Shown here: in pieces, positions 4,613 to 52,237 of the stretch
Layout: every line of letters starts with the position of its first letter
Position numbering within the stretch: position 1 is the stretch's first letter
Source: a virus
Lineage: Duplodnaviria; Caudoviricetes
Virus record (IMG/VR): IMGVR_UViG_2636415703_000001
Location: 30,143 to 94,142 of that record
Length of the DNA stretch: 64,000 bases
Strand: one strand, 5' to 3'
The notes under the pieces: model-generated
The model's input: the letters and a program-made list of their open reading frames with translations, nothing else
Told to the model about the DNA's origin: nothing
Databases searched by the model: none
Translations under genes and position numbers: made by a program

Positions 4613-6325
4613 ATGAAAGGTACAAATCCCTTAATAATCCAACTTTACAATATGGATGAGTCTGTCATAAGACGCTTCGAAAAAGAGAATTTAGAGCATT
4701 CAGAGCATCCACTCAATGGAATGATTGATGTAGAAAATATAGATGAGATCCCTTACTTTTCTTCTATACCTAATAATATTCATGAAGCTGATTTCATCAT
4801 TATAGATACTACAGCGAGAAAACAAAAACCAGCAAACCGCTCAAGCAATATAAACATTCAAGTGCCAGACGGTGTTACTCATTATAATATTTTGCCTTTT
4901 GATGTTCATAGCATCATGAATGGCGTAAAACAAACCAGCCATAATCAATGTGTTATTTTTTTCATGAGCCGTTATTTTGCAGCCCAATATACTGTTTTCC
5001 TTGAAGGCTATGCAAAGCCATCACACCCTAATTACAACACGACAGGCATTGAATATAACGACGTCTCACGCGCGCCAAAATCAAGGCAAGGAAGTTTCTT
5101 TTCACCTCCCGGTGACAATAAATATAGAAACATTACTAAATTATTGAATAAACATATTAAAGATGCAATTTATAATGTTGTATTTCCGCAATCTCTTGAC
5201 TCAACACTATTAATGTCTAAATCAGGAGAAGTAGTATCAAAAGTCAGCGAATGGAACACGAAAGTTCTTTTCTTTTTTCCTGACATAAGAGATAAGGCTG
5301 GATTCTTAGCTGAATTGTTTACCAGCGTATTCCCTAGCGAGAAATACGATTTCATTAGCAAAAATCTCTCAGATTATGGAGATTTTAGATGGATTAATGA
5401 TTTCCCATACTTATCTCATAATGAAAGAAAAATAAATATTAATATAGCCACTGAAAAAGCTAGACATGAAAAGGCCTTAAATACCTTAGAGCACAGCCTA
5501 ACTTATGAGTCCCAACGCATTGAAAATGTTAAGCTAAAAAAATTACTTACTGAAACCGGTGATGATCTTAAGGACTCCGTTGAGTGGTTCTTAGAATATA
5601 TAGGTTTCGATAACATCGAAAACCCTGATGAAAAAACCCATAACCAAAATGAGAAAATTTATGAAGAAGATATCAGGATTGTCTCGCCTGAGATTACTTA
5701 TATTATAGAGACTAAAGGGCTTGGTGGAACGTCAACTGATTCCGACTGCGCACAACCGTCGAAAATAGTCCTTAGAAAAGAGGATGCAGACCTTGCTAAA
5801 AATAATGGGGCTGCAACTATTAATTATAAGGCTGTATATATAGTAAATAGTCAAAGATATAAAGAGCCAAAAATCAGAGATAACCCGCCCTTTAAAAAGC
5901 AGCAAATTGAAGATGCAAGAATAGCCAGAAGAGCGATGACCACCACATATGAATTATTCACCACATTTCATATGATAGAGGCCGGAATTTTATCAAAAAG
6001 CAACGCTAGGGATGCATTTAAACAAAGTGGTTTAATTAACTTTAAGGTGGGAATAAAATCATTATTTTGCGATGATCGTTTTGATGGTCCTGCTGTATAC
6101 TCTTTTGACCTAAGTAAAACACCAGAAATAGAAATTAATGAAGATGATTGTGTTGCATTCCAAGATGGAGACGACCATTGGTATCTATCGCCTATCATCG
6201 AAATACAAATCAAAAATTGCAAGGTAAGTTCCGTTAATGCTTCATCAGGCGCCAGTGCAGGAGTAAAGTTAAAAAAATATATTAAGTCGGCTAAAAACTT
6301 CTATCTAAAGAAAGCTCACAGTTGA
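4613..6325 (+). CDS. AT-rich accessory protein with C-terminal PD-(D/E)xK-like nuclease domain
   Basis: 570 aa; coiled coil then EEDIRIV...IIETKG...AQ motif; low GC. Confidence 0.6.
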   Translation: MKGTNPLIIQLYNMDESVIRRFEKENLEHSEHPLNGMIDVENIDEIPYFSSIPNNIHEADFIIIDTTARKQKPANRSSNINIQVPDGVTHYNILPFDVHSIMNGVKQTSHNQCVIFFMSRYFAAQYTVFLEGYAKPSHPNYNTTGIEYNDVSRAPKSRQGSFFSPPGDNKYRNITKLLNKHIKDAIYNVVFPQSLDSTLLMSKSGEVVSKVSEWNTKVLFFFPDIRDKAGFLAELFTSVFPSEKYDFISKNLSDYGDFRWINDFPYLSHNERKININIATEKARHEKALNTLEHSLTYESQRIENVKLKKLLTETGDDLKDSVEWFLEYIGFDNIENPDEKTHNQNEKIYEEDIRIVSPEITYIIETKGLGGTSTDSDCAQPSKIVLRKEDADLAKNNGAATINYKAVYIVNSQRYKEPKIRDNPPFKKQQIEDARIARRAMTTTYELFTTFHMIEAGILSKSNARDAFKQSGLINFKVGIKSLFCDDRFDGPAVYSFDLSKTPEIEINEDDCVAFQDGDDHWYLSPIIEIQIKNCKVSSVNASSGASAGVKLKKYIKSAKNFYLKKAHS

Positions 6326-29055: not shown

Positions 29056-30795
29056 TTAGCTGCCAGTAGTGGTAGCTGCTGCTTCAGGTGCGGTTTCGCC
29101 TTCGATCTGCTTACCGGTCAGCATGTTGTATGCGCCGACTTTGGTATTGGTCAGGGTCAGCTTGGCGAAGTAGTTTTCACCATTGCGCGGGTGCAGCTCA
29201 TTCAGGGAAGAGCCCCAGAGCGTCGTGCGGTTAACCAGCGACGGGTTGGTTTCGTGGACGTACGGAATGGCCGGAACTGCGTCACCCGCGATCAGGCCTG
29301 CGTCACCGATGGAATCGCCGCGACCGTAGAAAAGAATGTCCTCTTTACCCAGCGCCACGCCGTTGGCCACGAACTGATCGCAGATTGCCGTAGGCACTTC
29401 GAAGATCTGATAGATGCCGAACAGGGTGCCGATACGCTGGATGTACGGAGACTGCACAAAGTTAGGATCCGCCTGGAAGACATTAGCAGGCAGGCTCTTC
29501 AGGAAGTTAGCCGCTTCACCACCAGCAAAGCCACCACGAATACCGGCCTTACGCGTACGGTTCACCATGTCAGTGCTCAGCTGAGTGATCGCGTGCTTCA
29601 TCAGGCCTACCCACGATTCGTAGGTCTGGCCTTCCGGCAGTGCTACGTCAAATTCACGGTCATAAACGTTGTGGAATGCCATCGTGCGCAGACGCATCAT
29701 GTCCTGCTCATGGCTCAGCCAGTTACGCATAGCAGTAAACTGCGTAGAGGACAGGTTGATGCCAAATTCGCGACTCAGATCAGATGCGGCCATTACGGTG
29801 TGCTCAGACGCGATCACGAACTGTGACGGCTTAACGGTGAACTCACGCATGGACTGGTTAATAACCGGGATCAGGCCTGGTGCTTTCTCAACGTTGATTT
29901 CAACTTGTGCCGCCAGCTCGGTACCTTTCGCCGGTGCATCGGTGAAGGTCACAGCGATGGTGCCTTTGTCGTAATCAACCTTACAGGTAGCCGCAAAGGC
30001 ATTGCCTTTGACGTCTTTATCGGAGAAATACAGGTTGCCGTCGCCGTCATCGACTTTGCCCGGACGACGGTTGATCAGCAGCTTGGCGCGGCCAGCACGA
30101 ATCGGCATATCAGCGCCTTCCACGGTCTTCATGGAGAAGGTGAAGGTTTTCTTGGTGCCGTCCGGCTGCATGGCGGCAGGGAACGGATACAGGCGCTTCA
30201 TCTGCGAGTACACAGCAGCAGACTGCATGTGCATTTCGTCGCCCTGGTCAAAGGTACCGAACTTCGTACCGGCAACGTTCAGGAGCTCGTAGATCTTCGC
30301 TTCATCGCGCTCACACGGGACAAAGGTACACGCGTCGCTGGTGGCCGCGCCCAGCACAGCTGGCAAAATCAGGGCGGCAAACTGCGCCTGACGCAGTACA
30401 CCATCAGAAGTGCGCATGTCAGCCGCGACAGATTCAAACATCGCCTTGCCGTTGCCTTCGTGCTTCTCAGCCGCTGATTCGATCATCAGGTTTTCCAGCG
30501 CACGGCTGGCGTTCGCCAGCTGGTCAGCTGGTGGATAATGACCGTGGCGCTCTTTGTACTCGATCATGCTCGACGCCCAGGCGGTGCCGACAATACGGCA
30601 AAACTCCGGATTAGCGCCTTCAAACATCGGATCCTGGCCTGCTGCAGCGCCAATGTTCTGAGACATTTCGACGCGATCAGAAATCATAGCGCCAGAGGCA
30701 TTGCGCTGCGCATCAACGGTAAAAGCCATAACACGCGAGGCGCGGGTCATGATGTCCTGCTCACGCATACGTGCAGGGGTAATATCTTTGCTCAC
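29056..30795 (-). CDS. Major capsid protein (P1 gp23-like)
   Basis: 579 aa; first gene after a late promoter; N-terminal propeptide with MFE/S site; synteny. Confidence 0.85.
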   Translation of the reverse strand: MSKDITPARMREQDIMTRASRVMAFTVDAQRNASGAMISDRVEMSQNIGAAAGQDPMFEGANPEFCRIVGTAWASSMIEYKERHGHYPPADQLANASRALENLMIESAAEKHEGNGKAMFESVAADMRTSDGVLRQAQFAALILPAVLGAATSDACTFVPCERDEAKIYELLNVAGTKFGTFDQGDEMHMQSAAVYSQMKRLYPFPAAMQPDGTKKTFTFSMKTVEGADMPIRAGRAKLLINRRPGKVDDGDGNLYFSDKDVKGNAFAATCKVDYDKGTIAVTFTDAPAKGTELAAQVEINVEKAPGLIPVINQSMREFTVKPSQFVIASEHTVMAASDLSREFGINLSSTQFTAMRNWLSHEQDMMRLRTMAFHNVYDREFDVALPEGQTYESWVGLMKHAITQLSTDMVNRTRKAGIRGGFAGGEAANFLKSLPANVFQADPNFVQSPYIQRIGTLFGIYQIFEVPTAICDQFVANGVALGKEDILFYGRGDSIGDAGLIAGDAVPAIPYVHETNPSLVNRTTLWGSSLNELHPRNGENYFAKLTLTNTKVGAYNMLTGKQIEGETAPEAAATTTGS

Positions 30796-48318: not shown

Positions 48319-49200
48319 ATGGAAAATGACGAAGAAATCAAGACGATAGGTGATGCTCTGGTGTACAGCTCTGAGCAAGAAGCGAAAAGTTATACACTGA
48401 CACCTACAGCTAATCGGACAGTCCAGCCGATCGCGTTGATGCGTTTGGGGGTCTTTGTGCCTGCTGTCCGTAATAAACCCCAGCGCGGGAATGCTGTCAT
48501 TGATGCGTCTGAAGACTTTGGTCAGCTGGAGATAGCGAAAGCAGAGGGCTACACCAATATCATGATTAAGGGCAGCAGGCTCGATATGAGCACTGACTTT
48601 AAGACGTGGATCGGTGCTATCCGGGCATTCAGTAAGTATGGTGCTGACAGCAATCGCATTAAGTTACCGTTTACCGAATTTGCCAAGCTGTGCGGAATAG
48701 CTGTCGATGACATTAATCAGCGTTCTCGCGATCGCTTCTTCAACTCCTTTCTAAGACTGGCCTCTCTTGTCGTCTCGTTCAAAAACAAAGACGGCAGCAA
48801 AGTGACCATTACGCACCTACTCAATAGCGCCCATTTTGATACTGAGAAAGACATTATCACTCTGGAAGGGGACTCCCGGCTGTGGGAGCTTTACGCCTTT
48901 GATCACAAGGTGTTACTCCAGCTAAAAGCTATCCAGGCATTGCCGCGCAAAGAGTCGGCCCAGGCGCTCTATGTTTACATCGAGAGCCTGCCTACTGGCT
49001 TCCTGCAGGTGTCGTTAGAGCGTCTTCGTGATCGCCTCAACTTGAACTCCACTATCAGCACACAGAACAACGTAGTCCGTAAAGCCATGAAAGAGCTGGC
49101 CGACATAGGATACCTGTCGTTCACTGAAGTTAAGAAGAATGGCGTGGTTTACTTCCAGATTCACTCTCGAAAGCCTGACCTCCTTCCAAACAAAGAATAA
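48319..49200 (+). CDS. repA: Plasmid replication initiator (P1 RepA / RepFIB family)
   Basis: TVQPIALMRLGVFVP and RLDMSTDFKTWIG motifs; flanked by iterons. Confidence 0.92.
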   Translation: MENDEEIKTIGDALVYSSEQEAKSYTLTPTANRTVQPIALMRLGVFVPAVRNKPQRGNAVIDASEDFGQLEIAKAEGYTNIMIKGSRLDMSTDFKTWIGAIRAFSKYGADSNRIKLPFTEFAKLCGIAVDDINQRSRDRFFNSFLRLASLVVSFKNKDGSKVTITHLLNSAHFDTEKDIITLEGDSRLWELYAFDHKVLLQLKAIQALPRKESAQALYVYIESLPTGFLQVSLERLRDRLNLNSTISTQNNVVRKAMKELADIGYLSFTEVKKNGVVYFQIHSRKPDLLPNKE

Positions 49201-49202
49201 TC

Positions 49203-49712
49203 ATTGCTGGTTTCATGGTAAGCGTTGTTGGTTTCATGGTGAACATTGTTGGTTTCATGGAAGCATTGCTGGAATATCGGTAGTTAATGCTAATGGCTCA
49301 GCTTTTTAGAGTGTTTTTTACTCACAAATGGCTGCTACCATGAAATCGACAACGCTTTTTGTGATTGAGTTGGCGTATTGCCATGAAACCAGCAACGCTG
49401 GTTACTCTCATAGTCGTGTTCACCATGAAACCAGCAACTGCAAAGGGAACACAGCTGTTAAGCCATGAATCCAGCAATGCCACAGTAAAGGTATTACGAT
49501 AGTAAGCTATCTGCGGTGTAAAACTGCATTGTCTTGTCAAAGCAGCACATCAGCAAACCCACGTGAAGAGTATGTGATAGATGTTGCTGGTTTCATGGCA
49601 ACTCTATAATCAACAACTTTATGAGGATAAAATTTGAGCGGCAAAATTGTTTTGCCATGAATAGAGCAACGTTGGTGGAAAAAGCGACTATTTCGCCATG
49701 AGCCAACTATCT
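49203..49712. repeat. incA-like copy-control iteron array (about 10 copies, both orientations)
   Basis: Direct copies at 49203, 49224, 49245 and 49583; inverted copies at 49337, 49380, 49422, 49462 and 49655; further degenerate copies. Confidence 0.9.
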
Positions 49713-49728
49713 TTCACAAGGACCAAGG

Positions 49729-50439
49729 ATGTTTGATTTTAACAATTTTCCGCCCCAGTTTTTGCACACTGATGTCAGTCTCACATTAAGCATTATTGAT
49801 TCTTTTATTAATCAAACAGAAGTGTCAATTGCAGAAAGTGTTGAAAAGTTCTATCAAAATTCACCAGAAGAGATCGAACTAGATTTTCGAGATGATGAAG
49901 GAAATTTCATTAGTATTGACTACTACATGGGACTTGATAGTAGCTCTGTAGATCTGCATGACATGTTCACGTCATATTACCCCAGCATAACTCGGCGCTC
50001 TGTTTTTTTGACTCTTTATGGAATGCTTGAGCATGATTTTGAAAAGCTGTGTAATGGTTTTGCAAATCATCATGGAGCGCCAGTAAAGCTATCTGAGCTT
50101 AAAGGTAATGGCTTTGAGCGTTGCGATTTGTTTACGCGAAAGATCATAGGAATGCCAACTTCAGAGCATTTCTCTCTTGTCAAGAAAGTGACAAAGCTAC
50201 GCAATGCTTGTGCGCATAATGATGCAAGATTTGTTGAAAACGATGGAAGACCTATTCGTGAATTAGAAGAACTAATGCGCTTACATCCCGAGGTACTAGT
50301 CTGCGATCAAAAGCAGGTTAATTTCAAAGAAGGATCACTTCAGACGCTTACTGCAATATTGAAAAACTACTTCAACGATGTAGAGAAAGCTCTAAAGGCT
50401 CTTAAAAAACCTGACCCTTTTATTGCATTCCATAAGTGA
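49729..50439 (+). CDS. AT-rich HEPN-domain protein
   Basis: RNACAH (Rx4H) motif, upstream LEH; AAGGA SD. Confidence 0.7.
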   Translation: MFDFNNFPPQFLHTDVSLTLSIIDSFINQTEVSIAESVEKFYQNSPEEIELDFRDDEGNFISIDYYMGLDSSSVDLHDMFTSYYPSITRRSVFLTLYGMLEHDFEKLCNGFANHHGAPVKLSELKGNGFERCDLFTRKIIGMPTSEHFSLVKKVTKLRNACAHNDARFVENDGRPIRELEELMRLHPEVLVCDQKQVNFKEGSLQTLTAILKNYFNDVEKALKALKKPDPFIAFHK

Positions 50440-50461
50440 AAAAGCCGCCCTAAGGCGGCTT
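50439..50461. terminator. Terminator between convergent genes
   Basis: AAAAAGCCGCC-CTAA-GGCGGCTT; the U tract lies on the minus strand. Confidence 0.75.
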
Positions 50462-50464
50462 GAA

Positions 50465-50596
50465 TCACTTGTATTGGTTTATGGTAATAGGAAAGTTGAG
50501 AATGGTATTAACCTGCCAACCATTTTCAGCACCTTGTGTATTCCATAATGCCAAAAACAGGGTCACGGCCAAGCCGTAAATCTCGCTTTTGCTCAT
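50465..50596 (-). CDS. 43-aa hydrophobic peptide, candidate type I toxin
   Basis: MSKSEIYGLAVTLFLALW...; SD within hairpin GGTTC-AATG-GAACC; terminator immediately after the stop. Confidence 0.55.
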   Translation of the reverse strand: MSKSEIYGLAVTLFLALWNTQGAENGWQVNTILNFPITINQYK

Positions 50597-50918
50597 TATC
50601 TGGTTCCATTGAACCGCTGGCCTTCGGCTAGCCACATGCGCATTAGAGAAGGCTAACGCAGATGCTTGCGGGTGAAAATTAAGGTAACTCTGACGCCGAT
50701 AAATGGGCTGAGAATCCCGTCTACCTTCCTGTTTGTACAATCAAAGCATTCCACCGATCGCTGAACCTTTGCAAACTTTTTTTTTCAGAAAAGTGATATA
50801 AATTTCTCCCCTTTAAATTTTCAGCAATATCAGATAATTATAAACTTTTAAATTCTTAAAAACTGGCGGCGCTGGTGCTTGACACTGTATGTTGGGTGGT
50901 GTTAGTGCAGCCTTGCTC

Positions 50919-50946
50919 TTGAAACGGAAGCAACAAACCGTATACT
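50919..50946 (+). promoter_or_regulatory. Sigma70 promoter of the sRNA
   Basis: TTGAAA-16-TATACT. Confidence 0.7.
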
Positions 50947-50952
50947 GACTTC

Positions 50953-51089
50953 GAAGGCTAACGCAGGTGTTTTCGAAAGATTACTTCCCTGTTGCCCGCG
51001 AAGATTGCCTGAGAACAATTTTCGCATTCTGGATAAATGCTTGAGAACATTTCCCGGATTCAATTAAGCCGCCTTCGGGCGGTTTTTTT
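50953..51089 (+). ncRNA. About 137-nt sRNA, candidate antitoxin
   Basis: Bounded by a promoter and a GCCGCC-TTCG-GGCGGT(T)n terminator; no contained ORF; first 20 nt complementary to the minus-strand leader at 50648-50667. Confidence 0.65.
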
Positions 51090-51460
51090 GTATTTGCTGA
51101 ACAATCTTTGCTTATGAAGTAAGCATGACATAAATATAACTCAATACAATACCTTGACCGCGCGTTGAATCTTATCTCGTAATAATTACTCATCTAATAG
51201 TTAATTATATCAAAGACATGGCTTGTGGATAACTTTTAGTTAATTTGATCGAATGCGTATTTCTTATTCAATCCTAAGGATTCAGTAAGGCAACTCCCAT
51301 CAATTCGTCATGGCTTGCAGTATAACACGGTCGGTTTTGTGAATTATCCTGCGAATGTCAACGCGGTTAACCTGCAGAGCCAGAGCTATAGATCGCAGGA
51401 GCTGGGGAGGCGAAGCTGTATCAACATACAGCTTGGCAGAGGCGGAATGATGGCAGGTTC

Positions 51461-51691
51461 TTAGATATTATTTTTCAGTAGGGCAAAAAGCATTGGCCTG
51501 CTATCAATGGTGTTTCCCTTCAGGTCTTTACATACCCAATTCTTTTTCAGAAACGTGATATAGCAGTCAGTGCGATTTATCCGTAACGGCTCGGTTCGAC
51601 CAGCTTCTACAAAGCCTTTTGCCTTCCAGTAGCCGCGCATTTTGTCCAACTCGATCTGCTTCAAACTTAAGTTCATAAGTGCAAAATTCAT
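51461..51691 (-). CDS. Hypothetical protein
   Basis: 76-aa ORF divergent from umuD. Confidence 0.5.
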   Translation of the reverse strand: MNFALMNLSLKQIELDKMRGYWKAKGFVEAGRTEPLRINRTDCYITFLKKNWVCKDLKGNTIDSRPMLFALLKNNI

Positions 51692-51758
51692 AAAGTTTTA
51701 GAATGAACTTATTCTTATATGAAATCGCCCACTGGTCAATTCCATAACCTTAATCTTA

Positions 51759-51778
51759 TACTGTGTTTTTATACAGTT
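51759..51778 (+). promoter_or_regulatory. LexA (SOS) box
   Basis: TACTGTGTTTTTATACAGTT upstream of umuD. Confidence 0.9.
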
Positions 51779-51796
51779 AAAAAGGAGGGGGTGAGT

Positions 51797-52237
51797 ATGC
51801 GCTTAGAAATAATTGCAATGCCTGACGAAGCCGCGCCACGACAGGCTTTCAGGCAGTTTATAGAAAAAGTGGCGGCGGGGTTTCCGTCTCCAGCTATCGG
51901 ATATGAAGACACGCCACTGGACCTGAATGAGTATTGCGTCAGAGCCAAAACGGCCACTTATTTCGTCCGCTGCGAAGGCGAGTCGATGATTGGGGCCGGT
52001 ATTTTTGACGGCGATCTGCTGGTGGTAGATAAATCGAAGGCGGCGGCAGACGGGCAGATCGTGATTGCCTCTGTGGACGGAGAGTTTACGGTAAAAAAGC
52101 TACAGCTGAGGCCGGTGCCGATGCTGCTGGCCATGAACCCGCGCTATAAGCCGATCCCTGTCGAGCCTGATGGTCTGGAAATATGGGGGGTGGTGACATA
52201 CGTCATCCACCGTACTGACAATGTTCCTGCACAGTGA
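51797..52237 (+). CDS. umuD: DNA polymerase V subunit UmuD
   Basis: AGFPSPA cleavage site, GESM and FTVKKL motifs; AGGAG SD. Confidence 0.95.
   Translation: MRLEIIAMPDEAAPRQAFRQFIEKVAAGFPSPAIGYEDTPLDLNEYCVRAKTATYFVRCEGESMIGAGIFDGDLLVVDKSKAAADGQIVIASVDGEFTVKKLQLRPVPMLLAMNPRYKPIPVEPDGLEIWGVVTYVIHRTDNVPAQ

Follow-up and report, generated by a model that had tools for sequence, protein, structure and literature searches.

The question

Why should a predicted small RNA (sRNA) be encoded back to back with a short open reading frame (ORF) whose message it appears able to bind? The cassette that raises this question measures about 655 bp, has a terminator at either end and lies at 50437-51092 of the window, by which we mean the whole stretch of 64,000 nucleotides that was analysed (positions 30,143 to 94,142 of the IMG/VR virus record IMGVR_UViG_2636415703_000001). 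Its minus strand carries an ORF of 43 codons, and the sRNA gene is divergent from it on the plus strand. An original prediction, made from the sequence of the window alone, regarded the pair as a new type I toxin-antitoxin system. Comparison with related cassettes leads us to consider it very likely that the pairing of the sRNA with the peptide mRNA is real. The cassette as a whole is probably a type I toxin-antitoxin system with two-site recognition, serving the maintenance of plasmids and phage-plasmids.

Predicted pairing of the sRNA with the mRNA leader

The sRNA promoter had been described as TTGAAA-16-TATACT with a start near 50953 and a strong terminator at 51066-51089, and all three are found at those places. 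This promoter is the only sigma-70-type match on the plus strand between 50200 and 51400, and the predicted first nucleotide is the G at 50953, 7 nt past the -10 element. The 23 nt at 50953-50975 recur as a direct repeat at 50648-50670, the identity being 87%. As originally claimed, the beginning of the sRNA (the seed) matches the leader 52-71 nt upstream of the peptide ATG, and the two differences within the first 20 nt (sRNA G versus A, T versus C) give G-U pairs only when a plus-strand RNA pairs with the minus-strand transcript. By our own arithmetic, chance would give about 3e-4 matches of 20 nt with two mismatches or fewer in 650 nt.

Would such a relation persist in other cassettes? We collected 45 instances of the module, 32 of them unique, from Pantoea plasmids, P1-like phage-plasmids and metagenomes. 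Five instances stand outside these counts: three (L004, L048, L049) are the window itself, one (L006) is cut before the peptide gene, and one (L050) was found after counting. So does L030, which the search pattern missed (it has PVSV for PVTV) and which is a complete module by eye. The sRNA is present in 32 of the 32 unique modules, and in all of them the seed/target relation recurs, with complementarity beginning no more than 1 nt from the predicted start. In 30/30 modules listed, the distance from the target down to the ATG is 51-55 nt.

The 19 distinct 21-nt seed/target pairs comprise 399 cells. Watson-Crick pairs account for 361 of these and transitions compatible with G-U pairing for 29; there are 9 transversions, located at the helix ends, and no transition in the opposite, A-C-type direction. 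Since the G-U-type differences fall at some 5-6 distinct positions, this asymmetry rests on few events, all in one direction. Among the eleven distinct 14-nt seeds no fewer than four groups can be told apart: GAAGGCUAACGC.., GAAAACGCAUGC.., GGAAACUUAUGC.. and a number of ..CUUCUGC.. variants. Calculated energies of cognate duplexes range from -31.8 to -38.4 kcal/mol (28 pairs), and those between the major seed groups from -16 to -25. Co-conservation of seed and target had been named as the decisive test; the two do co-vary over the 11 seed variants, the mismatches being of the G-U-compatible kind only.

The sRNA itself is similarly constant. A -10 element (TATACT or GATACT) is found at a constant distance from the seed, on the strand opposite to the peptide gene, in every unique module (32/32). 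The predicted length is 135-139 nt in 30/32, with the terminator located by script; in L028 the terminator is intact by eye and contains one G-U pair. The consensus fold of 25 sRNAs (RNAalifold) consists of two hairpins, each with the loop CCUGAGAA, and the terminator; it has 35 pairs, 10 of them compensatory, and in hairpin 1 changes on both sides are seen in 7 of 11 pairs. The sRNA of the window folds singly with z = -2.86 and scores 133.8 bits with R1, the covariance model of the sRNA. Its hairpin 1 loop contains CUGA, which fits the YUNR motif.

A second proposed site, between loops

The comparison also brought up a contact that goes beyond the original prediction. The loops of the sRNA hairpins (CUGAGAA) are complementary over 7 nt to the loop UUCUCAG of a hairpin at the 5' end of the peptide mRNA (SL1). 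GAGAA is found in both sRNA loops and in the leader in 24/32 modules, and GATAA at all three loop places in 6/32, which belong to one clade; one further module has a change in loop 1 only and one has a variant leader loop. L050, a divergent module found with the sRNA model (E 2e-9), has a seed, GAGACGCUGCUUGUGC, that matches its own leader, and its sRNA loop 2, CUGCAAA, stands opposite an mRNA hairpin loop UUUGCAG. The loop of hairpin 2 thus co-varies with that of SL1 in three states, and loop 2 is the constant partner. Three loop states, two being independent changes, argue for a kissing contact between the sRNA and mRNA loops.

One contig carries two modules that are unlike in both seed and loops. 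In the loci concerned (L009, L010, L023 and L044, from one IMG/VR contig and a metagenome contig) one replicon has a type A module with GAGAA loops and, about 0.9 kb away, a type B module with the GGAAACUUAUGC seed and GAUAA loops. For cross duplexes between these co-resident modules the calculated energy is about -19 kcal/mol; the cognate ones have -34 and -37.

The leader in which both sites lie has a structure of its own. The mRNA is predicted to start at about 50741, giving a leader of about 145 nt and an mRNA of about 300 nt. Its promoter had been placed tentatively near 50748-50775; a weak -10 element, TGGAAT, and TTGCAA/TTTGCA can be seen there, and the assignment stays tentative; the promoter scan of 50200-51400 did not detect it. 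In an alignment of 20 leaders, 96.2% of cells in the structure can pair, against 20-44% in slid controls. Six pairs change on both sides, compared with 3.1 +/- 0.8 in shuffled alignments, and none of 500 shuffles reaches this. For helices 1 and 2 of SL1, five pairs are changed on both sides and again 0/500 shuffles reach the observed values. The Shine-Dalgarno sequence (SD) had been described as held in a hairpin, and GGUUC-AAUG-GAACC at 50602-50615 is indeed predicted in both the minimum free energy (MFE) and the centroid fold.

Two further pairings were considered and set aside. In 94% of cells the SD (GUAAGG) has the potential to bind the SL1 3' arm (CCUUAC); because 173 of 500 shuffles reach the one compensatory pair of this interaction, it is indistinguishable from conservation, and we treat it as speculation only. 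The other candidate partner, for the SL1 loop, is a short segment preceding the SD (UCAGAAC/UCAUAAC), which some members of the GATAA clade have and which might form an interaction like the timP pseudoknot; the other clades lack the segment.

The peptide and its family

Translation of the minus strand from 50596 to 50465 yields the 43-aa peptide exactly as originally given, and a terminator comes next, at 50461-50442. The ORF is coding and under purifying selection. By length group, pN/pS is 0.15 (2 sequences), 0.26 (4) and 0.43 (19), with third-position changes in excess; a fourth group (2 sequences, 0.97) was excluded as support. Members of the family are 37-46 aa long and have 1-3 basic residues, an apolar run of 11-17 residues and a hinge rich in Gly; the polar tail, about 22 residues long, is conserved and ends in ..PVTVIHSK or similar. 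Most members lack cysteines. The claim that a divergent sRNA is paired with a long leader, that of a gene for a small membrane-type peptide, is strengthened in two respects: seed and target co-vary, and the ORF is truly coding.

It had also been said that the peptide matches no known one that could be recognised. It has no family match in Pfam, NCBIfam (E <= 1), PADLOC or PHROG, and the region matches no Rfam family at the gathering score or at E <= 10. The full-text literature on Pantoea type I toxin-antitoxin systems, and on four motifs of the peptide, gave no account of the locus. That the gene pair is new relative to public families and the searched literature therefore holds.

Where the cassette is found

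In a DNA search Pantoea plasmids align over the leader and the sRNA with 74-75% identity, leaving the ORF unaligned. The similar plasmid records are all from Pantoea (6/6 by this search, 5/5 in a later one). Searching for peptide homologues with tblastn, as had been proposed, gave four more plasmids, and scans with the pattern and the peptide gave loci in IMG/VR and in metagenomes. The peptide profile matches 14 clusters among 5.8 billion proteins and 21 sequences among 1.84 billion representatives. Seventeen of the latter are 37-88 residues long, some being N-extended gene calls; the other four are long repetitive proteins (316-1665 aa) with several matching stretches each and were left outside the counts. 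Relatives with a name are called 'hypothetical protein' only and come from Pantoea (including Pantoea ananatis) and Rahnella sp., these two being called chromosomal members.

Other searches were negative: there was no DNA match to the cassette in a phage collection or in E. coli genomes, tblastn of the distant members P0033, P0022 and P0030 against plasmids gave no further record, and a protein atlas returned only scores below 0.9, to unnamed clusters. A Nocardiopsis contig (L005) from the pattern scan was dismissed as a chance match in a GC-rich tandem repeat.

A replication initiator gene is present in the fetched flanks of 6/7 annotated plasmid loci. The cassette is carried by phage-plasmids of the RepB family and by conjugative IncF-type (IncFIC/IncFII) Pantoea plasmids, so it is not specific to phage-plasmids; its flanks fall into 16 and 20 k-mer contexts. 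Because of these many different flanks and its presence on both kinds of replicon, the cassette behaves as a mobile unit.

What the cassette might do

Computation finds here a small, coding, hydrophobic peptide and, adjacent to its gene, an sRNA gene complementary to its mRNA, as in a type I system. Toxicity and addiction we infer from the layout, the obligate pairing of the two genes and the position by replication genes in 6 of the 7 annotated loci. The following scheme can be suggested. From the minus strand would come an mRNA of about 300 nt, some 145 nt of it leader, coding for a 43-aa, TimP-like peptide with a signal-anchor-like segment. The plus strand would give a divergent, non-overlapping sRNA of 137 nt that recognizes its own mRNA at two sites: its loops (CUGAGAA) would kiss the loop (UUCUCAG) of the hairpin at the mRNA 5' end, and its single-stranded 5' tail would form a helix of about 21 bp with the leader, 52-71 nt upstream of the start codon. 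The duplex might cover a standby or activating structure and in this way block initiation of translation, like the duplexes of tisB/istR-1 and timP/timR; it might also, or instead, trigger cleavage by RNase III. If the sRNA were lost, the peptide would be made and would damage the inner membrane. Such an action would stabilise the plasmid or phage-plasmid that bears the cassette beside its replication genes.

Several observations weigh against this scheme. On the RNA side, the mRNA promoter is weak, TGG(A/C)AT being kept in most clades and not in all. Within the CUUCUGC seed group non-cognate duplexes are almost as stable as cognate ones. The GATAA loop state counts as one event, since it is confined to one clade. 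The metatranscriptome contig X18 matches 50437-51093, the gap between the promoters included, with an identity of about 92%, and beyond either end of the match its sequence is unrelated. It may derive from DNA or from read-through; it shows the cassette in another context, not its transcription. In L015 (NZ_CP141613.1) an IS3-family element sits within the terminator hairpin of the sRNA, with seed, loops and peptide gene intact. A hairpin with a T-run at the end of that element might substitute for the terminator. On the peptide side, an apolar run of 11-17 residues is short for a membrane-spanning helix, and the AF2 model, which places a helix at residues 3-18, has low confidence, its mean pLDDT being 64. 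The C-terminal tail (..IN.PVTVIHSK) is the most conserved part of the peptide, which hints at a specific partner and not at generic membrane damage.

The same features invite a different proposal, that the pairing is real and the peptide is no toxin. It would then be a membrane or exported peptide (a modulator of some partner, an exclusion factor or a signal) whose synthesis the sRNA keeps low. The conserved polar tail suggests a specific interaction, the apolar segment has the length of a signal peptide, L015 tolerates an insertion in the sRNA terminator, and the peptide matches no toxin family. However, the peptide gene is never seen without its own sRNA in the 32 unique modules, and the two recognition sites diversify and differ, both of them, between co-resident copies. 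A compact mobile cassette beside replication genes fits known type I pairs, and TimP, with the same layout, is toxic. On balance we regard this proposal as unlikely, while giving it real weight. Far less probable is the idea that the sRNA is an antisense RNA for copy number or incompatibility of the replicon and that the ORF encodes a leader peptide, in a CopA/tap-like or Inc RNA-like arrangement. The cassette does lie less than 1.5 kb from repA and its repeats, and kissing loops with subsequent extended pairing are typical of antisense RNAs in replication control. Yet a strong terminator and the 3' end of a convergent gene follow the ORF directly, so that nothing is translationally coupled to it; the sRNA and its target do not overlap; the cassette accompanies differing replicons (RepB-family phage-plasmids, IncFIC/IncFII conjugative plasmids) with varied flanks; and selection is purifying on the peptide sequence itself. 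One could even imagine that the repeats act as DNA, either as protein-binding sites or as relics of duplication, without any functional pairing of RNAs. Seed and target, like the three loop motifs, are after all direct repeats on the plus strand, and a DNA-binding protein or gene conversion could in principle preserve their likeness. This we find scarcely credible: the 29 transitions all keep G-U in the sRNA(+)/mRNA(-) orientation, with no transition of the reverse kind; in both RNAs the hairpin stems that carry the motifs in their loops have undergone compensatory changes; and the complementarity starts at the predicted sRNA start behind a conserved -10 element, in a unit that ends in a terminator.

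The type I toxin-antitoxin reading can be extended in a direction that is attractive and, in our opinion, rather doubtful. The 5'-tail seed and the twice-presented kissing loops may constitute a two-part specificity code that diversifies so fast that plasmids and phage-plasmids which compete or share a cell have versions without cross-reaction. It would serve competition of plasmid against plasmid as well as addiction, with the conserved, periplasmic tail of the peptide aimed at a specific target and not at unspecific pores. If correct, the cassette would be a natural set of orthogonal RNA switches.

Type I families are hard to find, both genes being tiny and fast-evolving. Here comparison alone makes the case unusually complete: two RNA-RNA contacts co-vary, each independently of the other, the structures of both RNAs are supported, and the ORF has a coding signal. 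Should the peptide be toxic, plasmids of the Erwiniaceae type and P1-like phage-plasmids would gain a family specific to them, and part of their maintenance region would be explained. The modules would then also form a natural series, with three loop pairs and at least four seed groups that do not match one another, in which to follow the evolution of antisense specificity and the avoidance of cross-talk between co-resident modules.

Features of the cassette and its surroundings

Coordinates in the window of the elements that make up the cassette
Feature	Position	Strand	Description
sRNA promoter	50919..50946	+	-35 TTGAAA 50919-50924, 16-nt spacer, -10 TATACT 50941-50946; 10/12 matches
Predicted antitoxin-like sRNA, 137 nt	50953..51089	+	5' single-stranded seed, two loop-presenting hairpins, terminator
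sRNA seed (5' tail)	50953..50973	+	complementary to the mRNA leader
sRNA hairpin 1	50998..51025	+	loop CCUGAGAA 51008-51015
sRNA hairpin 2	51028..51058	+	loop CUUGAGAA 51040-51047
sRNA intrinsic terminator	51066..51089	+	stem 51066-51085, then 7 T; kept in the sRNA alignment
Tentative toxin-mRNA promoter	50745..50776	-	weak -10 TGGAAT 50753-50748, -35 TTGCAA/TTTGCA at about 50769-50776
mRNA 5' hairpin SL1	50683..50726	-	inner GGG/CCC stem; loop AUUCUCAG 50715-50708, complementary to the sRNA loops
Seed target in leader	50648..50670	-	52-74 nt upstream of ATG; variable half in a predicted hairpin loop
Hairpin over weak Shine-Dalgarno	50602..50615	-	GGUUC-AAUG-GAACC; MFE and centroid prediction
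43-codon ORF, peptide MSKSEIYGLAVTLFLALWNTQGAENGWQVNTILNFPITINQYK	50465..50596	-	apolar run residues 6-18; pN/pS 0.26 in its own length group
mRNA intrinsic terminator	50437..50461	-	two-way hairpin, also serves the convergent 236-aa gene

The terminators at the two boundaries (50439-50461 and 51066-51088) are 23-nt inverted repeats with 91% complementarity. Between the two promoters there is a 34-nt stretch (50868-50901; GGTGCTTGACACTG..GGTGGTG, with TTGACA), which within the family occurs only in type A modules. It recurs, with unrelated flanks, in other contigs of four sequencing runs; in X4 the depth of such contigs is much greater, rising to 297, than that of the plasmid, which is 8.3.

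The window is part of a P1-like phage-plasmid (the virus record has 94 kb), since a C4 antisense RNA is present and relatives carry P1-type Ref and maturation-control genes. One side of the cassette has the RepB-type initiator gene, repeats and the 236-aa gene, and the other has umuDC. The 236-aa gene (49729-50439, plus strand) is convergent with the peptide gene and gives weak HEPN/Abi-type matches (PADLOC RTasHEPN, E 0.0011; Pfam Abi_2, E 0.11, below the cut-off; phrog_21382, E 2.4e-5). Relatives annotated as 'hypothetical' occupy the same place in L003 and L015, and the gene may be a defence gene. Just after repA, at 49139-49540, overlapping ORFs with recurring MKP(T/A)T.. translations suggest iteron-like direct repeats. 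On the umuD side, exact LexA boxes (CTGT-N8-ACAG) are found at 51416-51431 and 51761-51776; one is upstream of a 76-aa minus-strand ORF (51461-51691), and the other is just within the longest umuD frame (51719-52237), upstream of an internal Met.

Comparison with known systems

Three known systems share parts of this design. The hok/sok system of plasmid R1 is plasmid-borne, has a proposed post-segregational role, encodes a small peptide anchored at its N-terminus with a periplasmic-type tail, and relies on recognition by a U-turn-type (YUNR) loop followed by extended pairing; in all these respects it resembles what is proposed for the cassette. It differs in that the sRNA of the cassette is not encoded opposite its target (its gene is more than 200 nt from the mRNA start, with no overlap), no mok-like overlapping frame is evident, and cysteines are absent in most of the peptides. 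The peptide has no Hok match in Pfam and the region no sok match in Rfam.

In tisB/istR-1 (in part as summarised in PMC7667032) the sRNA is divergent and its pairing site is far upstream, within a leader that is long and structured. The cassette is alike in having a divergent sRNA, a target far upstream of the start codon, a long leader and a small hydrophobic peptide. Its peptide differs by the polar tail, and there is no Pfam or Rfam match to TisB or IstR. Since no LexA box (CTGT-N8-ACAG, at most one mismatch) occurs in 50437-51092, control of the cassette is not tisB-like.

The closest known system is timP/timR (ryfA/ryfB; Rfam RF00126) of Salmonella and E. coli, for which we draw on three papers (PMC7667032, PMC11228461, PMC13000454). 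According to these, TimP is an inner-membrane toxin of 38 aa with an uncleaved signal-like N-terminus, its N-terminal part being the more conserved (PMC7667032); the divergent TimR pairs through 18 nt of its 5' region with the 5' untranslated region (5'UTR) of timP, which blocks translation and relieves toxicity (PMC7667032); and the timP mRNA contains a pseudoknot switch (PMC11228461). In both systems a divergent, non-overlapping sRNA pairs by its 5' end with the 5'UTR (18 nt in timPR, about 21 nt here) at a conserved position relative to the ORF. Both leaders are long, with 146 nt by the E. coli K-12 annotation and about 145 nt here, and both peptides, of about 40 aa, combine basic residues and a polar tail with some 14 residues of apolar sequence.

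Some sequence details of the timR locus may be mentioned. In E. coli K-12 (L045, 5357-5456 and 5856-5900) a TimR segment other than the known seed, GGAAAGGCCGC, is nearly complementary to GCGGCCCUUUCC at the extreme 5' end of the ryfA/timP mRNA, and by reading of the sequence there is a second timR-like copy at about 5690-5790. The occurrence of AACGCAGGTG... in both the type A seed and this locus we treat as coincidence, because its orientation relative to the peptide gene is opposite.

Is the cassette then a member of the timP/timR family? The RF00126 (ryfA) model gives no match at E <= 10 in 50300-51300 or in the 94-kb record, and an E. coli control was matched. Alignment of the family peptides with E. 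coli TimP by hhalign has a probability of 0.5%, and the peptide profile A2 finds nothing in E. coli K-12. The sRNA model R1 misses timR at the K-12 locus, its best hit (E 0.37) being on the opposite strand and overlapping only the timR 3' end. There are differences of setting and design as well: timP/timR is chromosomal, between sseA and sseB, whereas the cassette is borne by plasmids and phage-plasmids in Pantoea, adds a loop-loop site with duplicated loops, and has its conserved part in the C-terminal tail. Judged by sequence and model tests, which fail despite the like architecture, the cassette lies outside the timP/timR family. If its peptide is toxic, the design would be convergent with that of timP/timR, where leader structure, not processing, controls translation.

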